Part shown: positions 253-23,762 of the stretch, piece after piece
Numbering within the stretch: position 1 is the stretch's first letter
Layout of the letters: each line of letters opens with the position of its first letter
DNA from: an uncultured Bacteroidota bacterium
GTDB taxonomy: Bacteria; Bacteroidota; Bacteroidia; Bacteroidales; UBA12481
Direction: 5' to 3'
DNA: 64,000 nt
Assembly: GCA_942493265.1 (NCBI GenBank)
Contig: OW818688.1
Coordinates: forward strand, 2,121,467-2,185,466
Position numbers and translations under genes: made by a program
Notes under the pieces: model-generated
The model's input: the letters and a program-made list of their open reading frames with translations, nothing else
Databases searched by the model: none
Told to the model about the DNA's origin: nothing

Positions 253-446
253 AGGTTTTTTATTTTGTAACGATTATAAATAACATACAACGCAGCATTA
301 GAAATTCCTTTTGGATTGTTTGATTCCACGCCTATTTAACTAAAAATTAACAAAAGGAGGTTAAACAAAATCTATAAATACTTAAACAAAACAAGCCATT
401 TGCGAATGCTGCAGATACGGTTACTTTTACGGTCAGGAGGTACAAT

Positions 447-1091: not shown

Positions 1092-4000
1092 CTATTTCTT
1101 GTATAATCCTTTTGCGGTACGGTCTTCCAGTTTCGGTGCCGGGGTGATTTTTGGCGGTGCAACTTTTAACAGTTTCATCACTTCTTCCACCACTTTCTCC
1201 ATTTGCGGATCCCTTCCCTGAACCAGGATATTCGGGTCGTCCCATACCGGGAAATCGGGTGAAACGCCCACACCTTCCCAGAACCAGTGACCGTCATTGT
1301 CGTACAGTCGGGCATCCGGAACGGTAATATTGCCGCCATCTATCAGCGAGTGGCCGGTAGCCGGTCCCACCAGAATTCCCAGCGTGCGTTCCCCTACAAT
1401 CGGACCTGCCTTTAGCTCCTGGAATGCCCATGGCAAACCGTCGCCGCCCGATCCGGCCCAGCCGTTGATCAGCATACCTTTCGGACCGTTATTGGTTTTA
1501 ACGGGCTGGGTATGATCGCGGCCATGACGCCAGTGCAGGTTGTACACCACCGGCCGCTTCAGCAGCTCCAGAAACCTGTCGGCCAGGGCACCGCCGGCAT
1601 TGAACCGTTCATCGATGATGAATCCGTCTTTCTCCAGCTGGCCGTAAAACATCTTCACCAATTCAAGCTGACCTTGTGCGGAAGTATTTGACATATAGAT
1701 ATATCCGAGTTTGCCTCCGGATAGTTTATCTACCATTTTGCGGTTATTCTCGATCCATTCCAGATAACGGAGATTCGATTCTTCACCCCCGGTGAGGCAT
1801 TTAACCGTGATTTTCTCGCTATCTTCCACTTTACCTGTTTTACTCACCGTTAGCGCTACCGTTTTGCCCGATAAGCCCTCAAAGGGTGCATAAGGATCCA
1901 TTTTCGGATCCAGATTCACCCCGTTTACAGCCAGAATATAATCACCCACACCGGTTTTAACTCCCGGCAGGTCAAAGGGTGAACGTGCATCGGTATCCCA
2001 GGCTGCCGGGGTCACGATCCTTTTAATTTTATATAATCCGTTTTCCAGGGTCAGGTCGACACCCAGGAATCCCGACGACAAGGAACGAACACTTTCCAGA
2101 TCACCACCGGAGCTGTAGGTATGTCCGGCGGCCAGCTCCGATACCAGCTGCGACTGAATGGTATTGATATCCGAGCGGGTTCGGGCAAAATCCACCAATG
2201 AGCCATACCGGGTGCGCATTTCGTTCCAGTCAACACCCTGCATGTTGGGGTCATAGAAGAAATCGCGGTGACGGCGCCAGGTATCATTGAAAATCTGCTT
2301 CCACTCTTCACGCGGTACCAGGTCCATTACCAGGTCCCCTGTTGGAATGGCCTTTTCAATTTTCTGTGCGGCGGCAGGCTGAATAATGCCATATTTTCCC
2401 TGGCTCGAAACCAGCAATGATTTACCATCAGCCGTTACAATCACCCGTCCCACCTCGGAAATCACGGGTTTCTCCTCACGTGAAACCAAATCGTACACCA
2501 CCAGCGAGGAGGTACGGTCACCCGATCCGGTATTTGCGGAACGCAGGTAAACGATCTTCCCCTCAAAGGCTTTCACACCCCGGATGTTGCCGGCTTTTGC
2601 CGGAAGTATCACGGATCTGGATTCAATATTGTCGAAATCAACTTTGACCACCACCTTGGCAGTGTCCTTGGCAGCTTTCTTTTCTTCCAGCTCATCATTT
2701 TTTGCATATAAAAGCGACGGCGCATCTTTTGTGAGGCTGAGGGCCGCAATCTGGGTGGAATTCGGATAGATCCAGGTTCCGTCGTTGAGATCCGAATATT
2801 CGGCCGTCATATTGCGGTTGGTCAGATAAAACAGGTACTTGCCGTCGGTGCTGAATACCGGATCGTTGTCGTTGTAAAACCCGCTGGTAGCCTGCCGGCT
2901 TTTACCGGATTCCATTTCATAGATATAGAGTGCATTGTTGCCGTTTTCCAAGGCCTGGGTGAAAGTGATCCATTTTGAATCGGGCGACCACGAGATGGTG
3001 AATCCCGGGGCACCGCCATGACCCTGGGTATCCAGGGTATTGCCGATATTGACGGTTTTGCCGCTTTCAGCATCGATAACATATATAGTGTTCGTTTCAT
3101 CGATAAAGGCGATTTTTTTGCTGTCGGGCGACCAGTTCAGCGTGTACCCGTAACCTTTTCCCCGTTTCGAGAGTTTTTTCGGTCCTGATGCGTCGGCAAC
3201 AGCCTGCAGCCAGATCTCGAATTCCCCGTCGCGGTCGCTCCAGCAGGCAATGGTTTTTCCATCAGGCGACCACGAAGGATCACGGTCGAAGGCTCCGCTT
3301 GAATTGGTCAGGTTGATCACATAACCTTCGGTTGCCGGTACATTGAACAGCTCACCGCGGGCCTCGAAAATAATGCGCTTGCCTCCGGGGGAGGCGGTCA
3401 TATTGTTTATCTGCTGTCCAACATTTACCGAACGTGGCATTTCCACGGAAAGGTCGGATACCACATTGACCTCCACCGGCTTGTATTTTTGCGATGCCAG
3501 ATCCATCAGGTAAAGGGTGCCGCCTGCCTCAAAAACGATATCGGTTTTTCCGGCCGACATATGGGTGACGTCAAAATCCCTGATTTTAGTGATCTGACTG
3601 CTTTGCTTGCTTTTTGTATCGTATACCCAGATATTCAGACGCATATTTTCATCGCGATCCGACAGGAAATAGATCTTGTCACCCACCCAGGCAGGCTTTC
3701 CGTCGATAGCATCTGTTTTGGTAATGTTTTCTGCAGTATTGGCTTTCAGGTCAAACACGATGACATCCGAGGCCATCCCGCCGCGATATCTTTTAAACGG
3801 ATAATTCTCGGTAATGCGGGTTATATAGGCCAACTGATTCCCGTCGGGCGAGTAGCTTGCCAGGATGGCATACGGAACTTTCAGCTTCTCAGGGAATCCG
3901 CCGGTGGCGTCAACCAGATAGAGATTGGTCATAGCTCCGCGTCCGCTTTCCCGTGCCGATGAAAACAACAGCCGCTTCCCGTCGGGATGCCAGTCGACCA

Positions 4001-10650: not shown

Positions 10651-11335
10651 AACCCCGGAGGGGTGAAAGGATTATAGCCACGAGGTATGAATTGAAATAT
10701 TAACCCCGTAGGGGTGGCATAAATACCCGGAATCTTCCTGCGCAATTATCATGTCACCCCTACGGGGTTTGGTTGGGGGTATGGAACGTTCACCGCTATA
10801 ATCCTATCACCCCTCCGGGGTTGGAGCTGAACGCAGATAGGAATTTAGTAATCAATAGGCTGATTTCTTAAGTTGATGTCTATGGAGGGTAATTTCATGG
10901 CAGGGAGGATGGAAAAGTTGAGAACCCAATTTTTAACCCCGGAGGGGTGCAATGATTTTAGCCACGTGGGTTGAATTGAAATATTAACCCCGTAGGGGTG
11001 GCATAAATACCCGGAATCTTCCTGCGCAATTATCATGTCACCCCTACGGGGTTTGGTTGGGGGTATGGAACGTTCACCGCTATAATCCTATCACCCCTCC
11101 GGGGTTGGAGCTGAACGCAGATAGGAATTAGTAATCAATAGGCTGATTTCTTAAGTTGATGTCTATGGAGGGTAATTTCGTGGCAGGGAGGATGGAAAAG
11201 TTGAGAACCCAATTTTTAACCCCGGAGGGGTGCAATGATTTTAGCCACGTGGGTTGAATTGAAATATTAACCCCGTAGGGGTGGCATAAATACCCGGAAT
11301 CTTCCTGCGCAATTATCATATCACTGCTACAGGGT
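10651..11335. repeat. Tandem array, 2.4 copies of a 284-bp unit built from family B double-hairpin elements
   Basis: Unit starts (AACCCCGGAGGGGTG) lie at 10651, 10935 and 11218. After the first ~35 bp, copies 1 and 2 differ by one substitution and one 1-bp indel. Copy 3 matches copy 2 until about 11316. Confidence 0.9.
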
Positions 11336-11834
11336 TTATGTATTTTAGGAATACCGCTGACCCATTGCGGCCGGTTTCCTTGAAGTTGTTTTTCTCCAGA
11401 ACCCTGATCGATGAAGGGTTGCTGAGGTCGGTTTCGGCCCTCACACATTTTACCTGGTCCTGATCACGGAGCCAGTTGAGCATTCCTCCAATGGTTTCTG
11501 TCATGATGCCTTTATTGCGAAAAGCCTCATCGGTGCCATAGCCGATTTCAACCTCCCCGTTTTCATCCGGTCCGCCATGAAAACAAATCCCTCCCGCGAT
11601 AGCCCGGGAACTTTTCTCGATGATGATCCACATGGTCCAGAAAAAGGGATTGTTACCCGGATCTTCCAGCTGGGGCAGCAAAGTGTTGACAATCGCATCT
11701 AGGGTTGCCTCATCTGTCAACGATTCCGATGGGGATAATCCCAGGTCCCTGGCGAGGTCATCCGGCACAGAGGCAAGTTTTTGTAACTCCAATAAAGTTA
11801 GTGGCTTGATAAGCAGCCGGTTGGTTTCGATCAT
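11316..11834 (-). CDS. GNAT family N-acetyltransferase (RimJ/RimL-like)
   Basis: 172-aa ORF. It has the N-terminal TNRLLIKPLT pattern typical of RimJ/L-type GNATs and an acetyl-CoA loop (FRNKGIMTE). Its last codons and stop lie in the decayed end of the tandem array. Confidence 0.8.
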   Translation of the reverse strand: MIETNRLLIKPLTLLELQKLASVPDDLARDLGLSPSESLTDEATLDAIVNTLLPQLEDPGNNPFFWTMWIIIEKSSRAIAGGICFHGGPDENGEVEIGYGTDEAFRNKGIMTETIGGMLNWLRDQDQVKCVRAETDLSNPSSIRVLEKNNFKETGRNGSAVFLKYINPVAVI

Positions 11835-11851
11835 CGGTCAATTTTTTTAAA

Positions 11852-13075
11852 CTATAAAGTCATGATTTTACCCCGGTTCATTTCGGACTCAAAAGCCCTG
11901 CAGGATAAGGATATATCCGGGTAGGCAGTGGTAAACCGAATATATTTTTTGGGATTATAGGCGTCAAAATCGTACTTAATTTCGATAGCCTCTCCTTGAT
12001 TAACAGATTGTTTCACAATGAAATCGACTTCGTTCCCCTCCGCGGTCCTCCAGAAAAAGAGGGAATCCATTCCTATCTTTTCCCTTAATCGCATAAAGGC
12101 ATAGTTTTCAATGAGTTCACCTTTATCGATACGCTGGAAAATGGGATTGAACTGGTTCATCAGGATGTTCCGCAGGCCCAGATCATGAAAGTAGCATTTC
12201 GGCATTTTTACCAATTCTTTTCGGATGTTTCCGAAAAATGGTTTGATCAGCTGGATATGGAAGCATTTCTGGAGAACATAAAAGTACTTATCAATGGATG
12301 CAGCCGACAATTTCAGGGTTCCGGCCAATTCATGGCTATTCACCAAACTACCGGTCTGGTGAGCGAGAAGGAGCATCATCCGATAAAACTTTTCCGAATC
12401 GGTGATATTGGATTCAGCAATATCACGCTTCACAAATGAGAAGAGCAATTCTTTAAGTAAAAGGATTTTTTCATCATGATCCTGTGCTAACACCACTGCC
12501 GGATAACCACCGTATGTGAGATATTCACTGAAAAATCCCTCAAGCTGTTGCAGTCGGGCCGGACGGTAATTGTCGTTCTCCCGCATGTTTTGCAGCTCCG
12601 TACTCATTTCCTGGTTTCCGGTCCTGAAGTCCAGCATCTCGTCAAAACTCAGCGTAAATAATTCAAAAAGCCGCTTTCGTCCTGCCAATGAATCTTTAAA
12701 CTTACTGTCAATATAAAATGCACTACTTCCGGTGGCAATTACCTTGATCAGTCCTGAATGCTTGTCATACAGTAATTTAAGAAAATTCGAAGGATCAGAT
12801 AAGTACTGTATCTCATCCAGAAGGAGGTAAATGCGCTGCTGATCCTTCCTGATGATCAGGTCAAAGATATTTTCGGGGTGCTTGTTCAGACTGGATAAAA
12901 TGGATGGATCTTCCAGTGTAAAAAAATATGCCGTCTCATTTTTCTCCTTCAGGTAATCTGATATTTGATTCAGCAGGGTGGTCTTTCCGGATTGCCTGGG
13001 CCCGACAATTATCGTAAATTCCCTGTCCTCCAGATGCCTGATCAATGAATGAAAAAGTTTTCTTTTATGAGTCAT
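11852..13075 (-). CDS. AAA family ATPase with C-terminal DUF4143-like region
   Basis: 407-aa ORF with Walker A (GPRQSGKTTL) and Walker B (YLLLDEIQY). The length and layout match the common AAA_14 + DUF4143 'ATP-binding protein' family. Confidence 0.85.
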   Translation of the reverse strand: MTHKRKLFHSLIRHLEDREFTIIVGPRQSGKTTLLNQISDYLKEKNETAYFFTLEDPSILSSLNKHPENIFDLIIRKDQQRIYLLLDEIQYLSDPSNFLKLLYDKHSGLIKVIATGSSAFYIDSKFKDSLAGRKRLFELFTLSFDEMLDFRTGNQEMSTELQNMRENDNYRPARLQQLEGFFSEYLTYGGYPAVVLAQDHDEKILLLKELLFSFVKRDIAESNITDSEKFYRMMLLLAHQTGSLVNSHELAGTLKLSAASIDKYFYVLQKCFHIQLIKPFFGNIRKELVKMPKCYFHDLGLRNILMNQFNPIFQRIDKGELIENYAFMRLREKIGMDSLFFWRTAEGNEVDFIVKQSVNQGEAIEIKYDFDAYNPKKYIRFTTAYPDISLSCRAFESEMNRGKIMTL

Positions 13076-13091
13076 GACCTTTACTTTAATG

Positions 13092-13172
13092 TAAATATCC
13101 GATAATTTTCAATCAGAATGTTAAAAATATCGGATAATTTTAAATTTATGGATCAAAAATATCGGATAATTT
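13092..13172. repeat. Three 17-bp direct repeats (AAATATC[C/G]GATAATTTT) at exact 32-bp phasing, upstream of the ATPase gene
   Basis: Copies lie at 13092-13108, 13124-13140 and 13156-13172. The core TATCSGATA is near-palindromic. They fill the gap between the yoeB stop and the ATPase start. Confidence 0.85.
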
Positions 13173-13436
13173 TCACTTGTCATAATGATACCTGCACGCA
13201 AAAATCCAAAGATCTTCCCCGTCAGCCTGATAAACCAGCCTGTGTTCCCGGTCAATTCGTCTGGACCACAATCCCGCCAGATCATATTTAAGCGGTTCCG
13301 GTTTGCCCATTCCTTTGTGGGGATGCGATTGGATATCGCGGATGAGCGAGTTTATTTTCCTGAGCATCTTTTCATCCTCCGACTGCCAATAGAGATAATC
13401 CTCCCAGGCATTGAGTGAAAAAGTGATCCGCATCAT
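13173..13436 (-). CDS. yoeB: YoeB/Txe family toxin (mRNA interferase)
   Basis: 87 aa, colinear with E. coli YoeB as I recall it (W.DYLYWQ..D...L.KIN.LI.D......GKGKPEPLK..L.G.WSRRI..EHRLVY......L.I..CRYHY). There is a 4-nt ATGA overlap with the upstream antitoxin gene. Confidence 0.85.
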   Translation of the reverse strand: MMRITFSLNAWEDYLYWQSEDEKMLRKINSLIRDIQSHPHKGMGKPEPLKYDLAGLWSRRIDREHRLVYQADGEDLWIFACRYHYDK

Positions 13437-13687
13437 TCAGAAATCAGGTCTTTCTGAGCCGATTTGCCGGCTGCCATCTGCTCGATGGATTCGAACAGCC
13501 TTCGGGCATTCTTCTGAGAACTAAGCAGATGTAGTGTTTCCATGATGGAATTGTATTCTTCCAATGATATCAGGACAGCCCCTTTCCCGGAACCCCTTTT
13601 AATAATCAGGGTTTCATGGTTTTCTTCCACGGTATCCAGATAATCCTTCAGGTCTTTCCGGAATTCAGTGTAATTGGCAGCTAACAT
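13433..13687 (-). CDS. yefM: Phd/YefM family antitoxin
   Basis: 84 aa with YefM-like motifs (LISLEEYNSIMETLHLLSS.KNARRL..SI). It sits immediately upstream of yoeB and overlaps it. Confidence 0.85.
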   Translation of the reverse strand: MLAANYTEFRKDLKDYLDTVEENHETLIIKRGSGKGAVLISLEEYNSIMETLHLLSSQKNARRLFESIEQMAAGKSAQKDLISE

Positions 13688-13713
13688 GGCATTGCAATTA
13701 AGTAATTAATCAG

Positions 13714-13729
13714 GTACAAATATACGTAC
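13714..13729. promoter_or_regulatory. Candidate YefM-YoeB operator: two GTAC cores 12 bp centre-to-centre
   Basis: GGTACA (13713-13718) and CGTACT (13725-13730) lie 27-43 bp upstream of the yefM start. The E. coli yefM-yoeB operator is described as TGTACA cores with 12-bp centre-to-centre spacing. Confidence 0.35.
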
Positions 13730-13788
13730 TTATTATTTACATTGTTATCGTTGAACCTCCAAACCTAACAATGCCCATCAGCAGAAAA

Positions 13789-16209
13789 TCAATTACCCAG
13801 TTTTATTAATCCACTTTCGTTTTCACCTTCGGGTTTCTGACCGTTCGCCGATTTGAATGAATTGAGGTTATAAGTAAGTCCTAACCATAAAATTCGGGTA
13901 TCTGTTTTGCTTGAATTGTTTAGGCTGAAAACGTCGTTGTCTGATTGAATTATCCATTTCCGGGTATTAAAAACATCAGTCAGGGTAAGACTGATCACCA
14001 GCTGATTTTTTAGCAAATTTCGTCTAACGGCAATGTCTGCATAATAAATCCCACTTAAATCGAATTGTGGTAATGAAACAGGAGAATTGTAGTTCAGGAA
14101 AACCTGAATGTCTGTCTTTTGGTCAGGCTTGTAGGTAGCCTTAAGATTTCCGGTCCACGCAACGTTATCCAGGCTCAGGTTAATGCCATCATAAGTGCCG
14201 TTTGATTTGGCATAAAAAACCGAGAATCCGGGATTTAAGGTAAGAACCTTTTTGATTTTAACGGTGGCATCCAAATCGGCTCCTACTTTGTTCAATCGGC
14301 CGCCATTAATGTAGGTGATAAATAGCTCGCTCGAAGAGGAAGGCAGGGTAACCTGGGTTATGAAATTCTTAGTAGAACTGAAGAATAGGTTGCTCCTGGT
14401 CTGGAATTTCTCATTGATCCAGATATGGTTTATCTCAGCCTTATCAAGAATCTCCGGAACCAGGTTGCGATTACCGGTTTCATAAGTCATCTGGTCAATC
14501 ACATTGATAAACGGATTTAACTGCGGGTAAGTTGGTCTGGTTACCCGTCGGTTTATGGTTAAGGCGATACTTTGTGTTTTGCTGATATTGTGTTTGATCA
14601 ACAGATAGGGAAACGGGAACAGGTAATCGGCTGCAATCGTTTCTTTAATTGACCTTTGTACCAGCTCTGAATTGTGATATTCAAACCGTGCCCCCACTTT
14701 ATAATAAAGTTTCTTAAACAAACTGTCGGAATACATTGCATAGGCTGAGTAAATGAATTCCTTATGCTCCAAGTCGTTACTGAATGATTGATTTCGTATC
14801 CAATCGTTTGTGATGGTATCCAGGTCATAGAAATCATAATTGAAACTATTCCATCTCGAGAAAGCTTTAAGCCCACTCTCAATTTTCCCTGATCGGAAAA
14901 GTGTTTTATAATGGTCGGCCTGAACTGTAATATTTGTCGGTGCGCCACCCCCGGATGACTTTTGTAAAAGCCGGTCATCAATAAAATATTCAGCCGGTCT
15001 GGATCCATGAGTGCGTGAAAATGAAGCATCGGCCGAGATCTCTTGCTTATTATTTTGCAGAACTCTCTTATAAGATAACGTGCTTTCTATCACTCGTCTT
15101 GAAAAAGTAATTTCATTTCGGCGGTTAAAAGAAGATTCGGGTAACGCATCCTGAACCAATGTTCCGGAAATGTTCTGAGTATTATAAAGATGCATGAACA
15201 TGGTTTTAACTCCCAAAGATATAATCGTCCTGGGGGATGGTCTTGCCGTAATGGTCATCGCACCCGTTTGGGTTGGAGTTATCTGGGTGGATCGGATATC
15301 CTGTTCAACCAATACGTCTGATAAATATAACTGACGGTCTAAACTACTGGTGATTGCAACTTTTTCAAATTTCCCATTGTAGTTTAACCCGACATCCCAA
15401 ATTCCTTTTCTAAGATTGAGGTTTAATCCGCCATTTAGGCGGTTATTGATCCCAAAGTTCAAGGTTGCCATGGCACTTATCCCTGATGAACCTTGCCTTT
15501 TCATCACCACATTAATGATTCCACCAGTACCCTCAGCATCATATTTTGCATCAGGATTGGTAATGATCTCCACACTTTCAATTCCGGAGGCTGGAATTGA
15601 GTTTATGGATGCCACTGTGGTTGGCTTACCATCAACCAAAATCAGGATATTGCTACTCCCTCTGAGATAGATATTGTTTTCTGCATCAATGGTTATGGAG
15701 GACATGCTTTTCAGAACCTCTGTAAGATTACCAGTAACTGAAGATAGATTCTGGGCGACATTAATTTTTGTTTTCTCAATAGTAACCTGCTTTTCACTTT
15801 GCTTTCCGGTAACTTGAACCTCCTTTATATTTAGGGAGGAGCTGCTCAACATGATTGGGTGATCAAGGATGACTGACGCATCAAGAATTTTTATTGTGGT
15901 GGAATGAGATTTATACCCGACAAAGCTCGATTTGAGCAGGAATTCTCCCTGGTTGAGATTGTTGATGGTAAACTGCCCTTTCGCATTGGTAATGGTGCCA
16001 TTAACCAGTGAATTGTCAGCCTGGCGATATACTGACACTGAAGCCAGCTCAATCGGATTCTTACTCAATGAGTCTATCAGAATTCCAGAAATGGTAAAGG
16101 GATGCTTACTTTGGCTGAAAGCTGTCAGAACGGGTAATAAAGCTAAAACAACAAAAAATGAAAACTTGTAAGTAACAGATATTCTAATAATTGATTGATT
16201 GATCGACAT
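13789..16209 (-). CDS. TonB-dependent receptor-like outer-membrane beta-barrel protein (CarboxypepD_reg + plug + OMP_b-brl_3-type barrel)
   Basis: 806-aa ORF with a signal peptide (FFVVLALLPVLTAFSQ). It has a CarboxypepD_reg segment (ISGILIDSLSKNPIELASVSVY), a plug (YLRGSSNILILVDGKPT...GIESVEIITNPDAKYDAEGTGGIINVVMK) and a long barrel. Confidence 0.8.
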   Translation of the reverse strand: MSINQSIIRISVTYKFSFFVVLALLPVLTAFSQSKHPFTISGILIDSLSKNPIELASVSVYRQADNSLVNGTITNAKGQFTINNLNQGEFLLKSSFVGYKSHSTTIKILDASVILDHPIMLSSSSLNIKEVQVTGKQSEKQVTIEKTKINVAQNLSSVTGNLTEVLKSMSSITIDAENNIYLRGSSNILILVDGKPTTVASINSIPASGIESVEIITNPDAKYDAEGTGGIINVVMKRQGSSGISAMATLNFGINNRLNGGLNLNLRKGIWDVGLNYNGKFEKVAITSSLDRQLYLSDVLVEQDIRSTQITPTQTGAMTITARPSPRTIISLGVKTMFMHLYNTQNISGTLVQDALPESSFNRRNEITFSRRVIESTLSYKRVLQNNKQEISADASFSRTHGSRPAEYFIDDRLLQKSSGGGAPTNITVQADHYKTLFRSGKIESGLKAFSRWNSFNYDFYDLDTITNDWIRNQSFSNDLEHKEFIYSAYAMYSDSLFKKLYYKVGARFEYHNSELVQRSIKETIAADYLFPFPYLLIKHNISKTQSIALTINRRVTRPTYPQLNPFINVIDQMTYETGNRNLVPEILDKAEINHIWINEKFQTRSNLFFSSTKNFITQVTLPSSSSELFITYINGGRLNKVGADLDATVKIKKVLTLNPGFSVFYAKSNGTYDGINLSLDNVAWTGNLKATYKPDQKTDIQVFLNYNSPVSLPQFDLSGIYYADIAVRRNLLKNQLVISLTLTDVFNTRKWIIQSDNDVFSLNNSSKTDTRILWLGLTYNLNSFKSANGQKPEGENESGLIKLGN

Positions 16210-16228
16210 CTATTTTGATGGTTAAAGA

Positions 16229-16357
16229 TTACTTTGAAAGGAACTTTTTGATAGCCACCAGGATCAGAATCAATCCGCCACACAGACCTAAAAGTCCTCC
16301 AAAAGCACCGGTTATCCGACCTATAATGATCAGTTTAATTAATGAAGGTACATCCAT
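16229..16357 (-). CDS. Tentative 42-aa single-TM micro-protein
   Basis: Hand-translated as MDVPSLIKLIIIGRITGAFGGLLGLCGGLILILVAIKKFLSK*. It ends 20 nt upstream of the receptor start codon on the same strand. It is below the ORF-track length cutoff. Confidence 0.3.
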   Translation of the reverse strand: MDVPSLIKLIIIGRITGAFGGLLGLCGGLILILVAIKKFLSK

Positions 16358-16429
16358 ATGTCTGCTTTTTATTGCAAGGTAATGGATGTTTCGGTAAGGT
16401 TAATACAGGATTGATAAGTCAAAACAAAA

Positions 16430-16460
16430 ACCGGAATGCCTTTCAATCGGGTGTTCCGGT
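16430..16460 (-). terminator. Candidate intrinsic terminator after the Cys-rich protein gene
   Basis: ACCGGAA (16430-16436) pairs with TTCCGGT (16454-16460). On the minus strand the hairpin is followed by TTTTTGTTTT. Confidence 0.45.
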
Positions 16461-16575
16461 TTTTAAGTTGTCGGTGTAGGTCTCTATAACCCTAATTGCC
16501 ATCATCAGGTCAATTACAAGGGTACATCTGGTAACCAAACAAGAGATAGATTTGTCAATTTCGAAACACGGATAG

Positions 16576-16920
16576 CTACTTTGTTTTGCCTTTGCAGGTG
16601 CCAGTACATGAAGACTGATCGCAGGTTTTCACCTCTTTGCAAACTTTGCCATCATGGCCCTTACACGTTTTGGGATCACAGGTTCCCAACTTGTGGTCGC
16701 AACCTTTTTCTGCACATTTTGCGGGATCACAGGCAACACCTTTAGCACAAGTTGTTGCATGATTGCAAGTTGCTGAACATTTCGTTTGAACCTGCTCCTT
16801 CTTGACCGCGGATTTTGTTTTTTTATCCTTACCCTCGCCAACAGGATTGGCACTGACGAAGAGAACCATGACAAAAGCCATAATCATGGTGCTTACGATT
16901 CTGGTGATTCGGTTTTTCAT
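16576..16920 (-). CDS. Secreted Cys/Lys-rich mini-protein (114 aa, 12 Cys in the last 68 residues)
   Basis: It has a signal peptide/anchor (IVSTMIMAFVMVLFVSANP). Then follows C-x3-C-x5-C-x5-C-x4-C-x4-C-x6-C-x4-C-x7-C-x5-C-x4-C-x3-C, with CDP(A/K)(K/T)C twice and three His. A TACATTTG -7 box lies on the minus strand at 16946-16953. Confidence 0.7.
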   Translation of the reverse strand: MKNRITRIVSTMIMAFVMVLFVSANPVGEGKDKKTKSAVKKEQVQTKCSATCNHATTCAKGVACDPAKCAEKGCDHKLGTCDPKTCKGHDGKVCKEVKTCDQSSCTGTCKGKTK

Positions 16921-17095
16921 TTTGTTTGTATTTTTTTAAGTCCTTCAAATGTATGGCATCCACAAACAGCTAGCAGTTAAAGTATTGTTAAATTATTCAC
17001 GAGCGATTGGAATTATTTTTATGCTACTCAGTTTTCATTTAACTCGACAATTTCTATTGCGAAGCATACCAGCTTCATGTCCATGCGTGATGTCG

Positions 17096-18265
17096 TTACG
17101 GCTCCTCGTCCCGAACTTCTGAGGCCCTTGACAGCTCCCAGATTACCAGCACCGGATTGTCATTCTCCGAAATTTTCTCATCCCAGGCTCTCAGTTTTTC
17201 ACTTGCGGAATGATCCGCCCCTGCGAGATTGGCGCGTATCTTTTCTTTGAAATCCATTGCGGAATATTCTGCGATGGCAAAAGTTTTACTTTCAAAATTG
17301 ATCTCCGAAGGATAAATGTCAAAATTCAGCTCCTGTATCCGGAATGATTTGACAATAGCGGCTTTGAGGCTATCCGGCCTGACCTCAACCAGTTGACGCC
17401 GACCGTACTTCCTTGCCTTATTGGCGCTGGATATTAATGTCTTATTCAGATACAGATACTTGCCGGATGAGTAAATGTAATTCACCATCAGGAATTTATC
17501 ATAGGTTTCTGCCGGATTGAGTTTTGATAAATTCAAGGTGTACCAGATCGGATATAATTGATTGTCATGGAATTGCATGATGGAGTCGCAATAAGGGGCT
17601 GATAGGGTGGCTCCTCCCAAACCGTCAGGATGGAGGTGCGCCGGACCTAAAATTGATTCCATTTCAAAAGTTCCAAAGTCCTTTGAATAAGTCAGATTGC
17701 CTTTAAAGTCCTGTGCATAAAATTTGAACTGCCGCCCCTTTTCCCCGGCTTCATCATTCATGATTACCAGGGTGGAATCGTTGAGAATGGCCATGTCATT
17801 AATCCGTCCGGTGATAGCCATTGGGAAGCTGGTAACCTGGCCTGTGTAAAGATCGCAGCAATAAATCCGTTCCCTGCTTTTTGTATAATCATTGAAATAG
17901 AACCTGGATTCATAAATAATGGCAGTTCCTGGGACGATGAACTCATTCGGTCCTTTGCCTTTGCTCATCAGCTGACGGATAAACCGACCCTGCCGGTTAA
18001 ATTGCTGAAGCCCCTTTTCAGTTTCAACCACGATAAAATCATTTGAAGCAAAGATGTATTTGGCACCGGATCCAATCAGGATCGAAGGATTGGTTTCCAA
18101 TGGAACAATTAGGTAATCATTTAATTGAGTAGTCAAATCAATGGAGATGGTATCTGTAATATTGGCAATATCCATGGCCGGAACCTTCGCTTCATCATTC
18201 TGAACCGGCTTTCCGGTGCACCCCGCAATTGCCAAAAAACACGCTAAAGCCAAATAAAATCTCAT
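17096..18265 (-). CDS. 6-bladed beta-propeller lipoprotein (BF3164/DUF5128-like)
   Basis: 389 aa with a lipobox (LAIAGCTG). It shows the motif pattern I associate with the family (IVPLETN..SLIG, KGKGPNEF). Confidence 0.7.
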   Translation of the reverse strand: MRFYLALACFLAIAGCTGKPVQNDEAKVPAMDIANITDTISIDLTTQLNDYLIVPLETNPSILIGSGAKYIFASNDFIVVETEKGLQQFNRQGRFIRQLMSKGKGPNEFIVPGTAIIYESRFYFNDYTKSRERIYCCDLYTGQVTSFPMAITGRINDMAILNDSTLVIMNDEAGEKGRQFKFYAQDFKGNLTYSKDFGTFEMESILGPAHLHPDGLGGATLSAPYCDSIMQFHDNQLYPIWYTLNLSKLNPAETYDKFLMVNYIYSSGKYLYLNKTLISSANKARKYGRRQLVEVRPDSLKAAIVKSFRIQELNFDIYPSEINFESKTFAIAEYSAMDFKEKIRANLAGADHSASEKLRAWDEKISENDNPVLVIWELSRASEVRDEEP

Positions 18266-18277
18266 ATTCTCAGTTTT

Positions 18278-19618
18278 TCAAATCCAGATGGAATAGATCT
18301 TCTTGATCCGCTTGCCGGTATCGGGCTGATAAAGAAAATAGAGCCTGTCGTTCAGGAATTTGCAGTTTTCGATATGATGGTAATCCCTGACCATGAACCG
18401 GCGGATTTCCTGTCCGGTTTCCGGATTGATCTCGATGAAATGGGTGAACGTCCCCTGCGGATACTCAACATAGATTCTACCATTGCCGGTATCCAGATGA
18501 ACATCCTGAAAATAGATGCCATACAGTTTATTGTTGATCCCAACTTCCCGAATAATCTGGCCCTTTGCATCCAGCCAATAAATAGTCGCCGCTTCCCGGT
18601 CAAAAATCAGCTGATGCTTTCCGTACGGCAAAGCTTTGGTGAAAACCGGACGAAAATCGGTCATCAAGGTGAACTGGCTCCCGAAATATCTATGGTATGC
18701 CGGCTCATAAACCGATGCAAGCCATGCATTTATACATCCACCGGTGCACCCTTCCGGAGGCTGCATGGTAATAGGAACCTGACTTTGCTGCGTCCAGGTT
18801 CTCTTCAGGGAACCAGCCTCCCTTTCTTTCATCAGGCCTCCGGTTGAATAGATAAGCTGAACATACTGACTGTCCCTTACGGCAAAATAGTTGTCATATT
18901 GATGATTGAATGAACTTTTTCTGATCATGATCATCGAATCAGTAATGCCGCAAACCGGCAAGATAAAATCCATAATAAAAGGCCTTTGGTAGGCATTCCG
19001 GACCGCTATCTCTTTGTGGGTCAATTGCAGTTCAAGCACCGAATCGGCACAAAAGGCAAAAATGTTCTCCTGACAATCCTGAAATAGGGAGTCGAGACCC
19101 TTGTAAGTATGGTTACTGATCATTTTCCCGCTTAAATCCGACACCAGCAATTCCTTCCGGAACTCATTCCCGTTCCTGAATCCCAGCGCGACAATCCGCT
19201 TCCCCACAATCTTGTAATCAATGATCGCGTAAGGATCCTTTTCAAAAAGCGTTGACGTAGCTTTTACCTGAACCTCCCTGATTTGTATGGAGGCCTGGTT
19301 CAGGAGAAAAACCCGGTTCTGGTTTTTAAATGATCTGTTGTACTGATCTTCATTTTCAATAACCACAGTATCCCTGATATAACCCATGGATTGAAGGAAC
19401 AGCACCGCCGGAAATTCCCTGAAAGTAATTTTAAACAATCCCTGATCATTCGTTGACGTCCCTTCAATGCCATTATTCAGAATAATGCTTGCACTGATAA
19501 TCGGTTGATTGGTCTTGCTGTCTCTGATTGTGCCATCAACTTTATACGTCTGGCTGAAAACCCCGATGGATACTGACAGGCAGATCGCCAGGAATACTAT
19601 AGGGCGGAGATGTTTCAT
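18278..19618 (-). CDS. CarboxypepD_reg-like domain protein with an uncharacterised C-terminal ~340 aa
   Basis: The track ORF is trimmed to MKHLRPIVFLAICLSVSIGVFSQ (ATG at 19618). It has a CarboxypepD_reg segment (VDGTIRDSKTNQPIISASIILNNGIEGTSTNDQGLFKI). No plug or barrel is recognisable. Confidence 0.7.
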   Translation of the reverse strand: MKHLRPIVFLAICLSVSIGVFSQTYKVDGTIRDSKTNQPIISASIILNNGIEGTSTNDQGLFKITFREFPAVLFLQSMGYIRDTVVIENEDQYNRSFKNQNRVFLLNQASIQIREVQVKATSTLFEKDPYAIIDYKIVGKRIVALGFRNGNEFRKELLVSDLSGKMISNHTYKGLDSLFQDCQENIFAFCADSVLELQLTHKEIAVRNAYQRPFIMDFILPVCGITDSMIMIRKSSFNHQYDNYFAVRDSQYVQLIYSTGGLMKEREAGSLKRTWTQQSQVPITMQPPEGCTGGCINAWLASVYEPAYHRYFGSQFTLMTDFRPVFTKALPYGKHQLIFDREAATIYWLDAKGQIIREVGINNKLYGIYFQDVHLDTGNGRIYVEYPQGTFTHFIEINPETGQEIRRFMVRDYHHIENCKFLNDRLYFLYQPDTGKRIKKIYSIWI

Positions 19619-19671
19619 GATGGGTTTCTTCAAGGATATATTTATGCTTCGGTTATTTGAATTTGAAAAGT

Positions 19672-20754
19672 TCACCATTTAATGAATTTCAGATGTTTGG
19701 TAAACCGCCCGCTAACTAGTGAATCCATACTGTTATTATCCAGCGTAAATCCAAATTTTCCGGTTGTACTCACAGAGGCAAAAATCCCCAATCCATTGAT
19801 TACGTTTGAAATGGGTTTGCCGATCTGATCTGATACAATTTTATCAGATTCCAGATATTGGCCGAAAACAGGATCGGCATTAAAAACAATCAGGTCAAAG
19901 TTGATTAGTTTTCTGGATTCTACACCCGGACGGTCTTTTATCCTTCCACCGAGATGTGCCAGAATACTTTCCGTGAAAGGAAATCCTGAAAAATAAGGTA
20001 TTTCTGATCCTCCATCGCCAACAAATACTTTCTTTTCGAATGGACCGAAATCCCAGGTCAGTTGTTTTTCCTTCCAATCGCCATTCTCAAATTCCTGGTA
20101 GTGTACGGTGATTTTAGGCTCCTGGTAATTTCCGTGTGAATTCCATGACCATTCCACCTGATTGTTATACAGGCTCATTGATACCGCATTACCCAGACTC
20201 ATTAAAAAGGGTCGTGCACAAATCCGGGTAGCAGCCACCGAATAAATGTCGGTTCCGGGTTGTTGAACGACCAGCCGGAGAAAAAGAGAGTTCAGCGTAA
20301 CAGCGCCATACAGACCAAATCTTACAAATTCGCTGGATGGGAGCGTATAAACCTTTCTGAATTTGCCATTTGCTGGATCAGTAACAAATGTAGGATGCAT
20401 TTCCTTCCTGATAATCAGCTCGCCCTGGTGCGGATAATCCGTTAACCATTGTTCCCAGCCATAGCTGCTGCCATAAACTTTCGCTTCCGGATCGAAACGT
20501 AATTCCAGGGTGACATTCAGAGAGTCAAAATAGAGGTCAGTATCAGATTGAATGCCTGACTTTTCCGGACCCTCCGGGAGAAATGTTTTGGTAACGGACA
20601 CCTGGTACTCCTGTTCATCATTATCAATTAATCCAAAGATAACCGGTATAGGCTGGCCAGGCATACCAGGATTAAATTCGGTCTCGCAGCCAAACAGCAA
20701 GATCAATAACGTCAGGAATGCCTGCCAGGATATTATTGTGTTTTTTTTATGCAT
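19672..20754 (-). CDS. Lipoprotein, tentatively DUF4249-like
   Basis: 360 aa with a lipobox (LLILLFGCETEF). The N-terminal pattern (PIPVIFGLIDNDEQEYQVSVTKTF) resembles DUF4249 lipoproteins, which usually follow TonB-dependent receptors. The family call is from memory only. Confidence 0.55.
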   Translation of the reverse strand: MHKKNTIISWQAFLTLLILLFGCETEFNPGMPGQPIPVIFGLIDNDEQEYQVSVTKTFLPEGPEKSGIQSDTDLYFDSLNVTLELRFDPEAKVYGSSYGWEQWLTDYPHQGELIIRKEMHPTFVTDPANGKFRKVYTLPSSEFVRFGLYGAVTLNSLFLRLVVQQPGTDIYSVAATRICARPFLMSLGNAVSMSLYNNQVEWSWNSHGNYQEPKITVHYQEFENGDWKEKQLTWDFGPFEKKVFVGDGGSEIPYFSGFPFTESILAHLGGRIKDRPGVESRKLINFDLIVFNADPVFGQYLESDKIVSDQIGKPISNVINGLGIFASVSTTGKFGFTLDNNSMDSLVSGRFTKHLKFIKW

Positions 20755-21695
20755 CTCACCGGTAATGCTGATTGATAATAATCCTGAACTTCGCCGTCCG
20801 GATTGTAATAAATTAAATTCATGTTTCCCCGGTACCAGATGATGTATGGCATATTGGATGAATAGTCGCCCTGGAATTCACCGGTCCACCAATGGCTGTC
20901 ACCCATCGAAAACGCATGATTGTTATACCAATTATATGTACCTCCCTTGGTTGTCAGATCCAGATTCCAGAACCCACCGGGACCAAACAGTCGCTCCGCC
21001 GGCGAAACCTGATAGTCTTTGTAGAAGATTTTCGCTAGTGTCACCCCGTCGGGCAGCTGCCATCCTTCCGGGCAGATGCCTTGAGGAAGATTTGCCTTTG
21101 ACCAGTTAGAAACCTCTTTCCAGGTATATAATCCACCCTTGAATTCTGCTTGGACTGAGTCATTATTATAATAGTATTTCTCAACGATTCCATTGTGTTC
21201 CTGCCCTTGAGGCGCCAAAATCAATCTGCCGAAGTCCAGGTTTTCCGACATCCACCATACATCCTCTATCAGGGTAATTTTATAAGACCTGCCATCGCGG
21301 CGATCCACCAGCCGGGATACTTTTACGATATCGGTTATCAAAATTTCCATTGATGTGGTATCGGTGGCACCTTCCTGATCCTTAACCTCAAGTGTTGGTT
21401 TGAATGTGCCATGCCGGCGGTATCTGTAAGCGGTAACTTTTTGGGTAATGTATTCCGTGTCCCAGGTCCCGTCGCCCTCAAAATCCCATCTGACAAAAAG
21501 TTCCGGTTGCCCATCATCCGGATCTGAAACCGCTCTGGCATCAAACTCCAGAACGGCTAGCGTATCAGCCAGATAGGCGGATATCTTAAATTGTGCATCC
21601 GGGGGCAGATTGATCTGTTCGCATGATGTTACCAGCCTGAAAAGGAGGATAATCCCGAACATCCATCTGCTGAATATACCCAACCTGAACTTCAT
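20733..21695 (-). CDS. PKD-like domain + FISUMP (TIGR02145-type) domain lipoprotein
   Basis: 320 aa with a lipobox (LVTSCEQ) and a PKD-like segment (VRWDFEGDGTWD). FISUMP hallmarks are present (DRRDGRSYKITLIEDVWWMSENL, GGLYTW, CPEGWQLP, C-terminal PVRCIKK). It overlaps the next gene by 22 nt. Confidence 0.8.
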   Translation of the reverse strand: MKFRLGIFSRWMFGIILLFRLVTSCEQINLPPDAQFKISAYLADTLAVLEFDARAVSDPDDGQPELFVRWDFEGDGTWDTEYITQKVTAYRYRRHGTFKPTLEVKDQEGATDTTSMEILITDIVKVSRLVDRRDGRSYKITLIEDVWWMSENLDFGRLILAPQGQEHNGIVEKYYYNNDSVQAEFKGGLYTWKEVSNWSKANLPQGICPEGWQLPDGVTLAKIFYKDYQVSPAERLFGPGGFWNLDLTTKGGTYNWYNNHAFSMGDSHWWTGEFQGDYSSNMPYIIWYRGNMNLIYYNPDGEVQDYYQSALPVRCIKKTQ

Positions 21696-21926: not shown

Positions 21927-22599
21927 ATGAACAAAACCTATATGCCAAAAGAAACAGCAGTTAAACTCTTTAATGAAAGTCAAATCCGAACTCATTGGGA
22001 CGAAGAGGAGGAGAAATGGTATTTTTCAATAGTTGATGTTGTTGGAGTTCTTACCGAGAGTGTTAATCCTCGAAAATATTGGAGCGTTTTAAAAACCAGA
22101 CTGAAGGCTGAAGGGAGTGAGTTGGCTACAAATTGTAGTCAACTGAAAATGTTATCAGCTGATGGCAAGTATTATAAAACGGATGTTGCTGATACAGAAC
22201 AGCTTTTTCGCCTGTTACAATCAATTCCTTCACCCAAAGCAGAGCCATTTAAACTTTGGCTCGCAAAGATGGGCAGAGAACGAATTGACGAAATTGAAGA
22301 CCCGGAATTGGGTATCGACCGTCTGATGGAAGCTAAAAGCCTTAAAAAAGGAAAATCTCCGCGATCATATGACCAATCTGGAATTGGTGCTAAATATGCT
22401 GGCTGAGGCTTCTACATCAGAAATCTCAAAAGAAAAGAAACCCGGATCATTTGAGGAAAATAAAAAAATTGCCAAACAGGGAGGTACGATTGCAGGTAAT
22501 ACCAGACGTGAAATTGAGGAGAAAACCGGTAAGAAGGTCGTTACGAGCCGGAACGCAAAAAAATTAGATGAACTCAAGGATATTAAAGGAATAAAATAG
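21927..22599 (+). pseudogene. Bro-N domain family gene split by a +1 frameshift in an A6 run
   Basis: ORFs 21927..22406 and 22369..22599 overlap in different frames. Removing one A from A6 at 22344-22349 gives ...EAKSLKKENLRDHMTNLELVLNMLAEAST..., which is the contiguous sequence I recall from intact family members. Confidence 0.6.
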
Positions 22600-22620
22600 G
22601 GGAGGTGGCTCGTATTTATT

Positions 22621-22688
22621 CCACCCCTACGGGGTTGATTTTTCGATTCAATCCACCAGGCTATAATCATTTCAGCCCTACGGGCTTT
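22621..22688. repeat. Family B double-hairpin element, single copy (forward orientation)
   Basis: The sequence is CCACCCCTACGGGGTTGATTTTTCGATTCAATCCACCAGGCTATAATCATTTCAGCCCTACGGGCTTT. It closely matches 49313-49381 and the units of the 10.6-11.3 kb array. Confidence 0.85.
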
Positions 22689-22822
22689 GTCACCGCAGGA
22701 ATGATTTGTATTTGTGCCGTATATATCGGCAAATACAACTTCTGGTTGTTGAAAACAACAAAAAGTAGCGTAAAAACAACTAAAAGTTTCTGATTATTTT
22801 TGATGCCGGATGTGCAGCCCCA

Positions 22823-22830
22823 TATCTTTG
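22823..22830 (+). promoter_or_regulatory. Candidate -7 promoter box (TATCTTTG)
   Basis: TAnnTTTG match 30 nt upstream of the ATG at 22860. Confidence 0.35.
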
Positions 22831-22859
22831 CTGTGTCGAATTAATAAAAAAAGAGACTT

Positions 22860-23762
22860 ATGTTAAACACACAATTGATTGGCAACAAGATTGCCGAAGC
22901 TCGTAAGAAAGCAAATCTTTCACAGGCACAACTTTCACAGCGACTGTTTATCAGCGCTCAGGCTGTTGGAAAGTGGGAGCGGGGAGAGTCCATGCCGGAT
23001 ATCATTACCCTGGTTCATCTGGCGGAAATTCTGAGTGTCGACCTTAACTATTTTTCAGATGGGATGGAACCCATGTCCAATGAACATGCATCCCCGGAGC
23101 CCCTGGCTGAGCAACCGGCGGAAATACCATCCGCTAAGAATAAGAAAAAGCCAGGCTGGGATATGTCGCGCTGGAACTGGGTGGATGCCGATTTTTCAGG
23201 GTTGAAAAATCTGCATGCAAAATTCAGCTCCTCCAACATGCAGCGCTGCAAGTTTATCGGTTCCGATCTGTCGGGACTGCTGTTGAAAAACAATAATGTG
23301 GATGCTTGTGAATTTTCCGGTTCCGATATCAGTCACAGCCATATTCATGGTTCCAACCTGGGGAACAACCTGTATAAGGACTGCTCACTACAGGATACTG
23401 AGTTTTCAGGAAGCAATATCGGCGGATGCGATTTCACCGGTGCCGATTTTACCGGTGCAACATTCAGAGGCTGTAATTTCGGAAAAAACATACTGACCAA
23501 AGCCGTCTGGAACCGCACCTCCTTTACCGGAATGGCGATTGACGATGTCATTTTCGAAGGTAAATTGGAGGACTGTTCTTTCGAAAATTGCGCATTTAAC
23601 AAGCTGACATTCCAAAATGCCACGCTGATTAACACTTTCTTCAAAAACAAGAATCTGAAACGCGTGCGGTTCATTGATTGTCAGGCTGATCGGATAACCT
23701 ACGAATTCCTGAAAAGCGGGAAAGCGGATTTAACCGGTATCACCTTGCTGGCATCATCCTGA
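22860..23762 (+). CDS. XRE-family HTH domain fused to a pentapeptide-repeat domain
   Basis: The N-terminus is Cro/C1-type HTH (IAEARKKANLSQAQLSQRLFISAQAVGKWERGESMPD). After a Pro/Glu/Lys linker there are about 150 aa of A(D/N)LXX-type pentapeptide repeats (DFTGADFTGATFRGCNF etc.). Confidence 0.8.
   Translation: MLNTQLIGNKIAEARKKANLSQAQLSQRLFISAQAVGKWERGESMPDIITLVHLAEILSVDLNYFSDGMEPMSNEHASPEPLAEQPAEIPSAKNKKKPGWDMSRWNWVDADFSGLKNLHAKFSSSNMQRCKFIGSDLSGLLLKNNNVDACEFSGSDISHSHIHGSNLGNNLYKDCSLQDTEFSGSNIGGCDFTGADFTGATFRGCNFGKNILTKAVWNRTSFTGMAIDDVIFEGKLEDCSFENCAFNKLTFQNATLINTFFKNKNLKRVRFIDCQADRITYEFLKSGKADLTGITLLASS

Follow-up and report, generated by a model that had tools for sequence, protein, structure and literature searches.

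A putative thiolate metal-binding protein family of the Bacteroidales with a conserved candidate operator

Methanotrophs export the Cys-rich protein Csp1, whose thiolates store many Cu(I) ions outside the cytoplasm. A divergent gene layout is shared by cpxP-cpxRA and zraP-zraSR. In silver and copper resistance, SilE and PcoE are periplasmic 'molecular sponge' proteins (PMC5008109). Here we describe a gene at 16576..16920(-) of a 64-kb stretch of DNA from an uncultured Bacteroidota bacterium (the window), which encodes a small Cys- and Lys-rich protein with an N-terminal signal segment, the mini-protein. It belongs to a family that is mostly found beside a two-component system (TCS) and downstream of a conserved direct repeat. 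On the basis of sequence comparisons, we consider it a putative TCS-controlled periplasmic thiolate buffer for metal or metalloid ions, a reading to which we give an even chance. The gene and its upstream elements are arranged as follows (aa, amino acids; ORF, open reading frame; dN/dS, ratio of nonsynonymous to synonymous substitution rates; AF2, AlphaFold2; Sec/SPI, Sec export with cleavage by signal peptidase I):

16576..16920, minus strand: coding sequence of the mini-protein, 114 aa, stop codon 16576..16578 (ORF listing, homologs over the full length, dN/dS)
16849..16920, minus strand: predicted Sec/SPI signal peptide, aa 1-24, cleavage after VSA (sequence, family conservation, AF2 helix)
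16780..16848, minus strand: Lys-rich linker, aa 25-47, with the family-conserved stretch KKxK(T/S)EVKK (family alignment)
16579..16779, minus strand: Cys-repeat region, aa 48-114, 12 Cys, including CDPAKC and CDPKTC (sequence, family alignment)
16946..16953, minus strand: -7 promoter box TACATTTG, invariant in the window and in comparison loci L001 and L049; TAnnTTTG family-wide
16976..16991, minus strand: direct repeat TTAAC-N6-TTAAC, putative response-regulator operator, 22 nt upstream of the -7 box

The complete sequence of the mini-protein is MKNRITRIVSTMIMAFVMVLFVSANPVGEGKDKKTKSAVKKEQVQTKCSATCNHATTCAKGVACDPAKCAEKGCDHKLGTCDPKTCKGHDGKVCKEVKTCDQSSCTGTCKGKTK. An earlier note on this DNA had described its Cys pattern accurately: the spacing C-x3-C-x5-C-x5-C-x4-C-x4-C-x6-C-x4-C-x7-C-x5-C-x4-C-x3-C matches the ORF exactly, from C48 to C109, and the repeated CDP(A/K)(K/T)C motif is present as CDPAKC at 64-69 and CDPKTC at 81-86. 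The three His residues (54, 76 and 89) and the many Lys residues (19 in the mature part) that it listed are there as well. The mature chain has 12 Cys in 90 residues, 3 His and 0 Met. The N-terminus, MKNRITR-IVSTMIMAFVMVLFV-SA/N (the slash marks the predicted cleavage site), resembles a Sec/SPI signal peptide, where the note had named a signal or anchor segment; the call is based on the -3/-1 rule and on the conservation of VNA or VSA in the family. The gene is genuine and under purifying selection. Loss of the frame in homologs had been named as a reason to dismiss it, and the frame is conserved: dN/dS is 0.14-0.25 against three relatives, at dS values of 0.3 to more than 2, and the single indel among the compared relatives is 18 nt long, a multiple of three.

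A word-indexed search with the single sequence returned only three proteins, namely the query itself and relatives of 90% and 61% identity, both of which conserve the reading frame and all but one of the 12 Cys columns of the mini-protein. An exhaustive profile search was therefore needed to reveal the family. It gave 47 clusters at 50% identity, nearly all of 90-135 aa and with end-to-end alignments, and a second profile search gave at least 167 clusters at 90% identity, most of them from metagenomes. The clusters come almost exclusively from Bacteroidales metagenomes. None of the at least 167 clusters has a Pfam domain, and all are labelled 'hypothetical protein' or carry plainly spurious names. 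The mini-protein has no match in Pfam, NCBIfam or PDB sequences, in agreement with the earlier statement that no family could be recognised, and searches of the same three collections with the family profile gave nothing meaningful; in Pfam and NCBIfam, 42 members had only noise at E<=1. Literature searches on the motif and on secreted bacterial metallothioneins did not return a description of the family either. The mini-protein thus represents a sizeable, uncurated and previously undescribed family of the Bacteroidales.

All members have a length of about 100-135 aa and share a three-part architecture of Sec-type signal peptide, Lys-rich linker and Cys-repeat region. The consensus of the signal peptide is MKKxLIxxxxLxxLAFVVVLFVNA, and residues -3 to -1 read VNA, VSA and INA in 24, 6 and 5 of 55 members, respectively. 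Gln is found at +1 in 13 of the 55, consistent with the Q-rule, by which this residue is expected in signal peptidase I substrates of Bacteroidetes (PMC5837995). The linker has the consensus KKAxTEVxK, with K34 invariant in the family alignment. The Cys region comprises 60-70 residues with 9-15 Cys. Its CDP(A/S/K)(K/T)C units, of which a protein has a median of two, are often arranged as 10-residue tandems (e.g. CDPAKCKEGKCDPATCK), and the commonest Cys-Cys spacing is x4. C52, C64, C69, C81, D82, C86 and C105 are nearly invariant. Neither a C-terminal domain for type IX secretion (T9SS) nor a lipobox is present in the mini-protein.

Averaged over the 55 members, the mature part contains 17% K, 13% A and 12% C, against 1.3% for L, I and F together, 2.0% H and 2.3% M, and in 50 of the 55 it is devoid of aromatic residues. 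The mature chain therefore cannot bury a hydrophobic core. AF2 modelling with a 42-sequence alignment gave a pLDDT of 54 and a pTM of 0.26, with the signal segment as the only moderately confident helix; in this low-confidence model there is no confident fold and no long helix beyond the signal peptide. Of 155 members, 91 have an even number of Cys residues and 64 (41%) an odd one, and repeat number and Cys positions vary between members. The mixture of even and odd numbers and the variable repeats argue against a fixed all-disulfide knot, and fit thiols that serve as ligands.

The same observations bear on the possibility that the mini-protein is a disulfide-knotted cationic peptide, be it an antimicrobial, a toxin, a bacteriocin or a purely structural peptide of the envelope. 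It is of the small, cationic, Cys-rich and exported type, and the YxzE-like putative bacteriocin family is matched weakly and below threshold by 11 members (best E-value 0.0014). Against this stand the 41% of members with an odd Cys number, the shifting Cys positions and repeat numbers, the lack of a predicted fold, and the absence of hydrophobic or amphipathic residues. Many anaerobic Bacteroidales, moreover, probably have only a small capacity to form disulfides in the periplasm. The toxin or bacteriocin role that the note had considered finds no echo in the gene neighbourhoods, since the 122 neighbouring proteins at the 37 genome loci introduced below include no conserved immunity protein, maturase or dedicated exporter. 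We regard this explanation as very improbable.

The -7 box TACATTTG at 16953..16946(-), which had been recognised from the window sequence, is of the Bacteroidetes type and invariant in the three closest loci, and TAnnTTTG lies at most 100 nt upstream of the gene in 37 of 42 family loci, against a background of 0.34 per kb per strand in the window. A scan for sigma-70 promoters and simple terminators is uninformative for this organism. Upstream of the -7 box, the block ATTTAACAAATATTTAACTGCC is shared by the window and by the relatives with receptors of 87% and 84% identity (see below). It persists where the upstream flank is unrelated, and the operator is kept in the window, L001 and L049. 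Across the family, 36 of the 42 loci have [AT]TAAC-N6-[AT]TAAC at a distance of 66-104 nt before the start codon, whereas shuffled controls had it in a mean of 0.13 and a maximum of 2 loci. A pair of these dimers, with a spacing of 21 bp, is present in 26 of the 42 loci. Regulators of the OmpR/PhoB family usually have direct repeats with an 11-bp period as their sites.

The motif is also specific. In ten further loci of 3-14 kb it occurs only before family genes, and the entire 64-kb window contains only two matches. The second of these, at 336..351(+), was considered as a further member of the regulon and rejected, as the window total is at chance level (0.53 expected). It lies about 96 nt upstream of an ORF at 447..1091 that, by eye from its translation, resembles HAD-like hydrolases.

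Genomic neighbourhoods were collected by scanning one-genome-per-species contigs with a back-translated CDPAKCK[D/E] DNA pattern, which gave 42 hits, 37 of them family members. Selection by the exact motif biases these 37 loci towards subfamilies that carry it. The records of 36 are titled Bacteroidales, Bacteroidia, Bacteroidetes/Bacteroidota, Rikenellaceae/Rikenella or Porphyromonadaceae, and the remaining one (L027) is titled only 'bacterium'. Genes were called as greedy longest ORFs, and the two nearest ORFs on each side were compared with Pfam, giving the 122 proteins of the census.

A HisKA/HATPase_c protein is among the neighbours in 23 of the 37 loci, a Response_reg protein in 22 and a Trans_reg_C protein in 21. 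According to the ORF maps, the kinase and regulator genes lie immediately upstream of the mini gene on the opposite strand. The TCS is also beside the mini gene in metagenome contigs L005 and L006, and in L004 the kinase ortholog is on one side of it, with a ZitB-like transporter of the cation diffusion facilitator (CDF) type, which scores above the superfamily cut-off, and DsrE on the other. The regulator is of the OmpR/PhoB type. The N-terminal sensor region of the kinase, presumably periplasmic, has no Pfam match and carries the conserved motif IC.EV..C...G...SC. An ortholog of the kinase or the regulator is not encoded in the 64-kb window. The most economical reading of gene order and operator together is that the mini gene would be the conserved primary target of the adjacent TCS.

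The arrangement raises the question whether the mini-protein acts on the TCS itself, as a periplasmic accessory or feedback modulator in the manner of CpxP for CpxA or ZraP for ZraS. Its contact with the Cys-containing sensor region of the kinase would be made by a bridging metal or a mixed disulfide, and the stimulus would titrate it away, so that its main role would be in signalling and not in sequestration. The divergent orientation towards the kinase/regulator operon, with a shared intergenic region that holds the tetrameric operator in 26 of the 42 loci, is what such a role would lead one to expect, and the conserved Cys residues of the kinase sensor region point the same way. Conservation is higher in the linker KKAxTEVxK than in the Cys region, as would suit a contact between proteins. 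However, the mini-protein does not resemble the LTXXQ or Metal_resist families, and the freely variable number of Cys repeats would be unusual for a specific binding partner. Moreover, the lineage of the window and several others have become separated from the TCS and yet keep the operator; this makes the mini gene a target and does not imply a partnership. We therefore think a modulator role unlikely, with the reservation that it overlaps with the thiolate buffer and that both could be true together.

The other neighbours often have to do with metals or metalloids. In the census, convergent downstream neighbours include an ArsP_1 permease in 15 of the 37 loci and a DsbD_2 protein in 10. By NCBIfam, the DsbD_2-type neighbours match the ArsG-family transporter (305 bits, cut-off 200), and the adjoining protein matches the ArsF family (104 bits, cut-off 60). 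The other recurrent neighbours are of the MFS (8), PhoU_div (5) and Cupin_2 (5) types or are thioredoxins of the DsbH-like type (3). Near orthologs of the receptor gene that follows the mini gene in the window, further genes of this kind are found: OEP, a CusB-like adaptor and a resistance-nodulation-division (RND) pump in L001/L002, with an ArsC-like LMWPc gene in L002; a CzcB-like adaptor of an RND set in L052; a divergent ArsR/SmtB metalloregulator above cut-off, with DsrE, in L049; chromate transporters in L051 and L053, the latter also with an HMA/HMBD protein and two DsrE genes; and ArsP_1 in L055.

The arsenical cluster deserves a separate remark. At L047 4812..7348 and in 14 similar loci, a convergent ArsP_1 permease (447 aa, with a CSC motif in L047) is accompanied by ArsG-family and ArsF-family proteins. 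Its place beside the mini gene in one subfamily hints at organoarsenical handling. The ion pointers conflict in this respect, with arsenical-type neighbours in this subfamily against Zn/Cd/Cu-type pumps elsewhere.

Two proteins outside the family contain the CDPAKC motif. A metagenome-assembled genome (MAG) of Zixibacteria (L037 3613..4080(-), JBDREQ010000009.1) encodes a secreted HMA-domain protein with an MTCGGC motif (Pfam HMA, 57.7 bits). It ends in the CDPAKC tail HEGCDPAKCKDSKGCGMAKGKK, which is like the C-terminus of the mini-protein family, a hint that can be taken as an independent pointer to metal binding. A Planctomycetota MAG (L029 1..873(+)) encodes a 290-aa fragment, cut by the contig end, with 30 Cys, CDPAKC, many CC/CxC runs and a C-terminal rhodanese domain; its architecture is unrelated to that of the mini-protein family.

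The thiols might also serve as a redox or reactive-sulfur buffer that traps persulfide, polysulfide or oxidants in the envelope instead of metals. DsrE/TusD-like genes adjoin in L004, L049 and L053, the DsbD_2-type proteins (10 loci) and DsbH-like thioredoxins (3 loci) would suit such chemistry, the ArsR-type regulator of L049 has a sub-threshold match to the sulfite sensor BigR as well, and the Planctomycetota protein combines CDPAKC with a rhodanese domain. The DsrE and DsbD links are nevertheless fewer than those to TCS and efflux genes, and Lys-flanked thiol clusters without a fold suit metal-thiolate proteins better. To our knowledge, there is no precedent for a dedicated secreted thiol-sponge protein. 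Such a buffer appears quite improbable to us.

In the window, the mini gene is followed by a receptor gene:

13789..16209, minus strand: TonB-dependent receptor, CarboxypepD_reg + Plug + OMP_b-brl_3, 806 aa (Pfam, synteny)
16425..16465, minus strand: hairpin and U-run between the mini gene and the receptor gene, candidate terminator or attenuator (folding, conservation)

The flanks are as the earlier note had described them, with an OMP_b-brl_3/Plug receptor downstream and four genes at 17096..21695(-) upstream. Their products are a DUF5128 propeller, a CarbopepD_reg_2 protein, one without an assigned family and a PKD+FISUMP protein. Orthologs of the receptor are numerous, with 51-87% identity, and we compared nine distinct contexts, the window and eight others. 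The proposed linkage to the receptor holds in part: in five of the nine contexts, a family member that has the operator lies no more than about 700 bp from the receptor gene, whereas a TonB-dependent receptor or Plug protein is not among the two nearest genes on each side in any of the 37 other family loci (0/37). A family member is adjacent in L001/L002 (receptor identity 87%) and in L049/L050 (84%), where the NCBI record uses a wrong frame. In L051 (71%) the mini gene is divergent, with a short Chromate_transp ORF in between, and in L056 (62%) it is divergent and has four CDPSKC units. No family member is present in the receptor contexts L052, L055 and L058-L060. The order of mini gene and receptor is kept in the window, L001/L002 and L049/L050 and the orientation is inverted in L051 and L056. 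Synteny between the window and L001/L002 spans only the mini gene and the receptor (13791..17003). As the other flanking genes all differ between the receptor loci, the pairing has survived rearrangement. The link to the receptor is thus real, but confined to the lineage of the window.

The hairpin with its U-run, about 110 nt past the stop codon, had also been spotted in the window sequence. It has a folding free energy (dG) of -17.1 kcal/mol (z -4.0), and none of 200 shuffles folds as well. Its stem, AACCGGAA/TTCCGGTT, does not vary between the window, L001 and L049, whereas the flanking sequence has diverged. The simple terminator scan missed it because of its long loop. Rfam has no match within 13000..17300, so the long intergenic stretch is not accounted for by a riboswitch or small RNA. 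In three loci, no TAnnTTTG box separates the receptor gene from the mini gene, and the receptor may therefore be transcribed by read-through. Co-transcription of the receptor with the mini gene through the conserved hairpin may thus take place.

With a receptor next door, the mini-protein might be its ligand, a hemophore-like carrier that delivers a scarce thiophilic metal for uptake. Pairs of the hmuY-hmuR type in Bacteroidetes have this layout of small exported protein and receptor. The proximity of the two genes is retained across loci whose flanks are otherwise different, and the missing -7 box would allow co-transcription. Most of the family lives without this receptor (0/37), several receptor orthologs (L052, L055, L058-L060) live without the mini gene, and the neighbours are mostly efflux or resistance genes and not uptake genes. 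There is no known signal for crossing the outer membrane, neither a T9SS C-terminal domain nor a lipobox, and a conserved terminator-like hairpin separates the two genes. For these reasons we find the ligand role distinctly unlikely. The same low probability applies to a bolder proposal, in which the family would be extracytoplasmic and metallothionein-like, with its own circuit of Cys-containing sensor kinase, OmpR-type regulator and operator, and the lineage of the window would traffic the mini-protein through a dedicated TonB-dependent receptor, either expelling it metal-loaded or retaking it as a proteinaceous metallophore. Expulsion would amount to protein-borne metal export, comparable to the Oar-dependent secretion of PopC.

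Several observations on the receptor loci are recorded here for completeness. L053/L054 (receptor 64%) contain, at 2986..3799(+), two small Cys-rich proteins, one of 112 aa (CCQKTCCHKCK) and one of 114 aa that is Cys/Lys-rich, upstream of a methyltransferase, the HMA/HMBD protein, the two DsrE genes, the receptor ortholog and ChrA. The pair has no Pfam match and no TTAAC operator, and the 114-aa protein was not counted as a family member (E=0.92, no operator). A response-regulator gene in L056 was ruled out as an ortholog of the TCS regulator. In the window, a 42-aa hydrophobic ORF, MDVPSLIKLIIIGRITGAFGGLLGLCGGLILILVAIKKFLSK, at 16229..16357(-) ends 20 nt before the receptor start codon. It was rejected as a third gene, as the insertion is absent from L049 and the segment is only partly present in L001, and it is probably not a conserved gene.

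In L050 (GCA_003487905.1, DNMZ01000110.1), a 112-aa ORF at 5507..5845 has been called in a different frame, the correct 114-aa frame being 5434..5778; through miscalls of this kind, protein databases may lack family members. Genes for DUF5128 six-bladed propellers and FISUMP (Fib_succ_major) proteins are found again beside receptor orthologs (L051 1..3836, L052 3418..5911) and may be a second, separate partner set of this receptor group. Past the receptor, the window has about 700 bp without an ORF of at least 100 aa and then genes for an AAA_14/DUF4143 ATPase and a GNAT acetyltransferase (11316..13789(-)), while in L001/L002 the OEP, CusB-like and RND pump genes occupy this position, which suggests replacement or rearrangement. 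Just upstream of the four-gene operon, at 21927..23762(+), are genes for a Bro-N protein and an HTH_3 + pentapeptide-repeat protein, the latter matching the Hailong effector HalA and Qnr below threshold. Both genes could be phage-derived or defence-related.

Among the three functions that the earlier note had put forward, metallothionein-like metal binding has the most support, all of it indirect. It is favoured by the composition, the lack of a strong bias towards even Cys numbers, the low-confidence AF2 model, the metal-type neighbours and the tail of the HMA protein. In a thiolate buffer of this kind, the precursor would be exported by Sec and cleaved by signal peptidase I, leaving the mature 90-residue protein in the periplasm. 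There it would display about 12 thiols in short CDPxxC or CxxxxC loops flanked by Lys, and it would fold only around bound ions, in metallothionein fashion, outside the cytoplasm. It could thus act as buffer or chaperone for soft metal or metalloid ions in the cell envelope, with Cu(I), Zn(II), Cd(II), Hg(II) and As(III) as candidates. Transcription would start from the gene's own Bacteroidetes -7 promoter and be controlled at TTAAC-N6-TTAAC by the OmpR/PhoB-type regulator, which for most members would be encoded, with the Cys-bearing histidine kinase, divergently next door, and in the genome of the window elsewhere. The window copy would keep TCS control although the regulator is encoded elsewhere, and in its lineage the receptor could be co-transcribed by read-through of the hairpin. 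Export and cleavage, metal binding, control by the TCS and hand-off to the receptor or to efflux pumps are all steps that we infer.

Several findings weigh against this thiolate buffer. Many of the 37 loci come from related MAGs of the Rikenellaceae type, and the counts are therefore not independent. The regulator has its best NCBIfam match in RprY, with 231-241 bits against a cut-off of 370, and neither the kinase nor the regulator reaches the cut-offs of the heavy-metal subfamilies, TIGR01386 (82-86 bits, cut-off 292) and TIGR01387 (about 127 bits, cut-off 279). The ArsP, ArsG and ArsF genes are convergent with the mini gene and not co-transcribed with it, the MFS, PhoU/PHO4 and cupin neighbours are not metal-specific, and the RND pump scores equally as multidrug and as CusA/CzcA pump, below both cut-offs. 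In the window, no metal gene adjoins the pair of mini gene and receptor. Finally, the metallothionein motifs CxC, CC and CxxC are not dominant in the family, and a literature search on the motif gave nothing relevant and no metal-binding precedent for the x4 spacing of Cys residues.

The envelope metal handling of anaerobic Bacteroidales, which are abundant in sediments, digesters and guts, is poorly characterised. At least 167 clusters are added to the proteins that can be annotated. If the thiolate buffer is real, the family would be a Cys-based counterpart to the His/Met 'sponge' proteins of Proteobacteria, and its short, highly specific operator and the candidate sensor kinase would be possible parts for a metal or metalloid biosensor. 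What TonB-dependent receptors do in metal-resistance neighbourhoods is a testable question, raised by their lineage-specific coupling to the mini gene.

By sequence, the mini-protein falls outside all described groups that come into consideration, i.e. SmtA-type metallothioneins, SilE/PcoE, LTXXQ proteins, Csp proteins and precursors of ribosomally synthesized and post-translationally modified peptides (RiPPs), and it would share working features with the first three. As for RiPP or bacteriocin precursors, its N-terminus is a Sec signal, and radical-SAM proteins, peptidase-ABC exporters and lanthipeptide enzymes are absent from the 122 neighbours at the 37 loci. Oar, too, has an N-terminal carboxypeptidase-regulatory-like domain. 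Transporters of the Oar type, which are TonB-dependent, secrete a protein (PMC6434023). With them and with HmuY-HmuR, the window locus has in common that a small exported protein is encoded beside a TonB-dependent receptor, but the linkage is confined to one lineage, and the mini-protein shows no sign of crossing or contacting the outer membrane. Csp1 differs in being a Tat-exported four-helix bundle with a Cys-lined core, whereas for the mini-protein no helix is predicted past the signal peptide; AF2 gives only short elements of low confidence, and there is no Pfam or PDB sequence match to Csp proteins.

CpxP, ZraP and Spy, like the mini-protein as predicted here, are small periplasmic proteins with genes divergent from the controlling TCS, and ZraP binds zinc. 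Their helical LTXXQ fold lacks Cys repeats, the mini-protein has no Pfam match to LTXXQ (PF07813/PF13801), and AF2 gives no long helices outside its signal peptide. The likeness to metallothioneins (SmtA/BmtA and the eukaryotic proteins) lies in small size, richness in Cys, Lys beside Cys, virtually no aromatic or hydrophobic residues and, for the mini-protein by prediction, no metal-free fold. In L049, the mini gene and a regulator gene of the ArsR/SmtB family are divergent, the arrangement of smtA and smtB. In contrast to the cytoplasmic metallothioneins, however, the mini-protein has a conserved Sec-type signal peptide, its dominant spacing is x4 and not CxC, CC or CxxC, control is mostly by a TCS, and neither the mini-protein nor the 42 members match PF02069 or any other metallothionein model.

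Functionally, the mini-protein would be closest to SilE and PcoE, with metallothionein-like chemistry. These are small, Sec-exported and periplasmic, intrinsically disordered without metal, built with repeated short ligand motifs and induced by a TCS, and their genes adjoin RND efflux genes; the signal peptide, low-confidence AF2 model, conserved operator and divergent TCS of the mini-protein family would suit a similar protein. The ligands of SilE and PcoE are His and Met, and binding makes them helical, whereas the mini-protein family has Cys in CDPxxC repeats; SilE and PcoE are found on Proteobacterial plasmids, and the mini-protein family on Bacteroidales chromosomes. Sequence similarity to SilE/PcoE or their His/Met motifs is not detected (no Pfam/NCBIfam match). 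As far as can be judged by such comparisons, the mini-protein thus stands for an extracytoplasmic Cys-repeat family with its own two-component circuit that is probably metal-binding and has not been described before.

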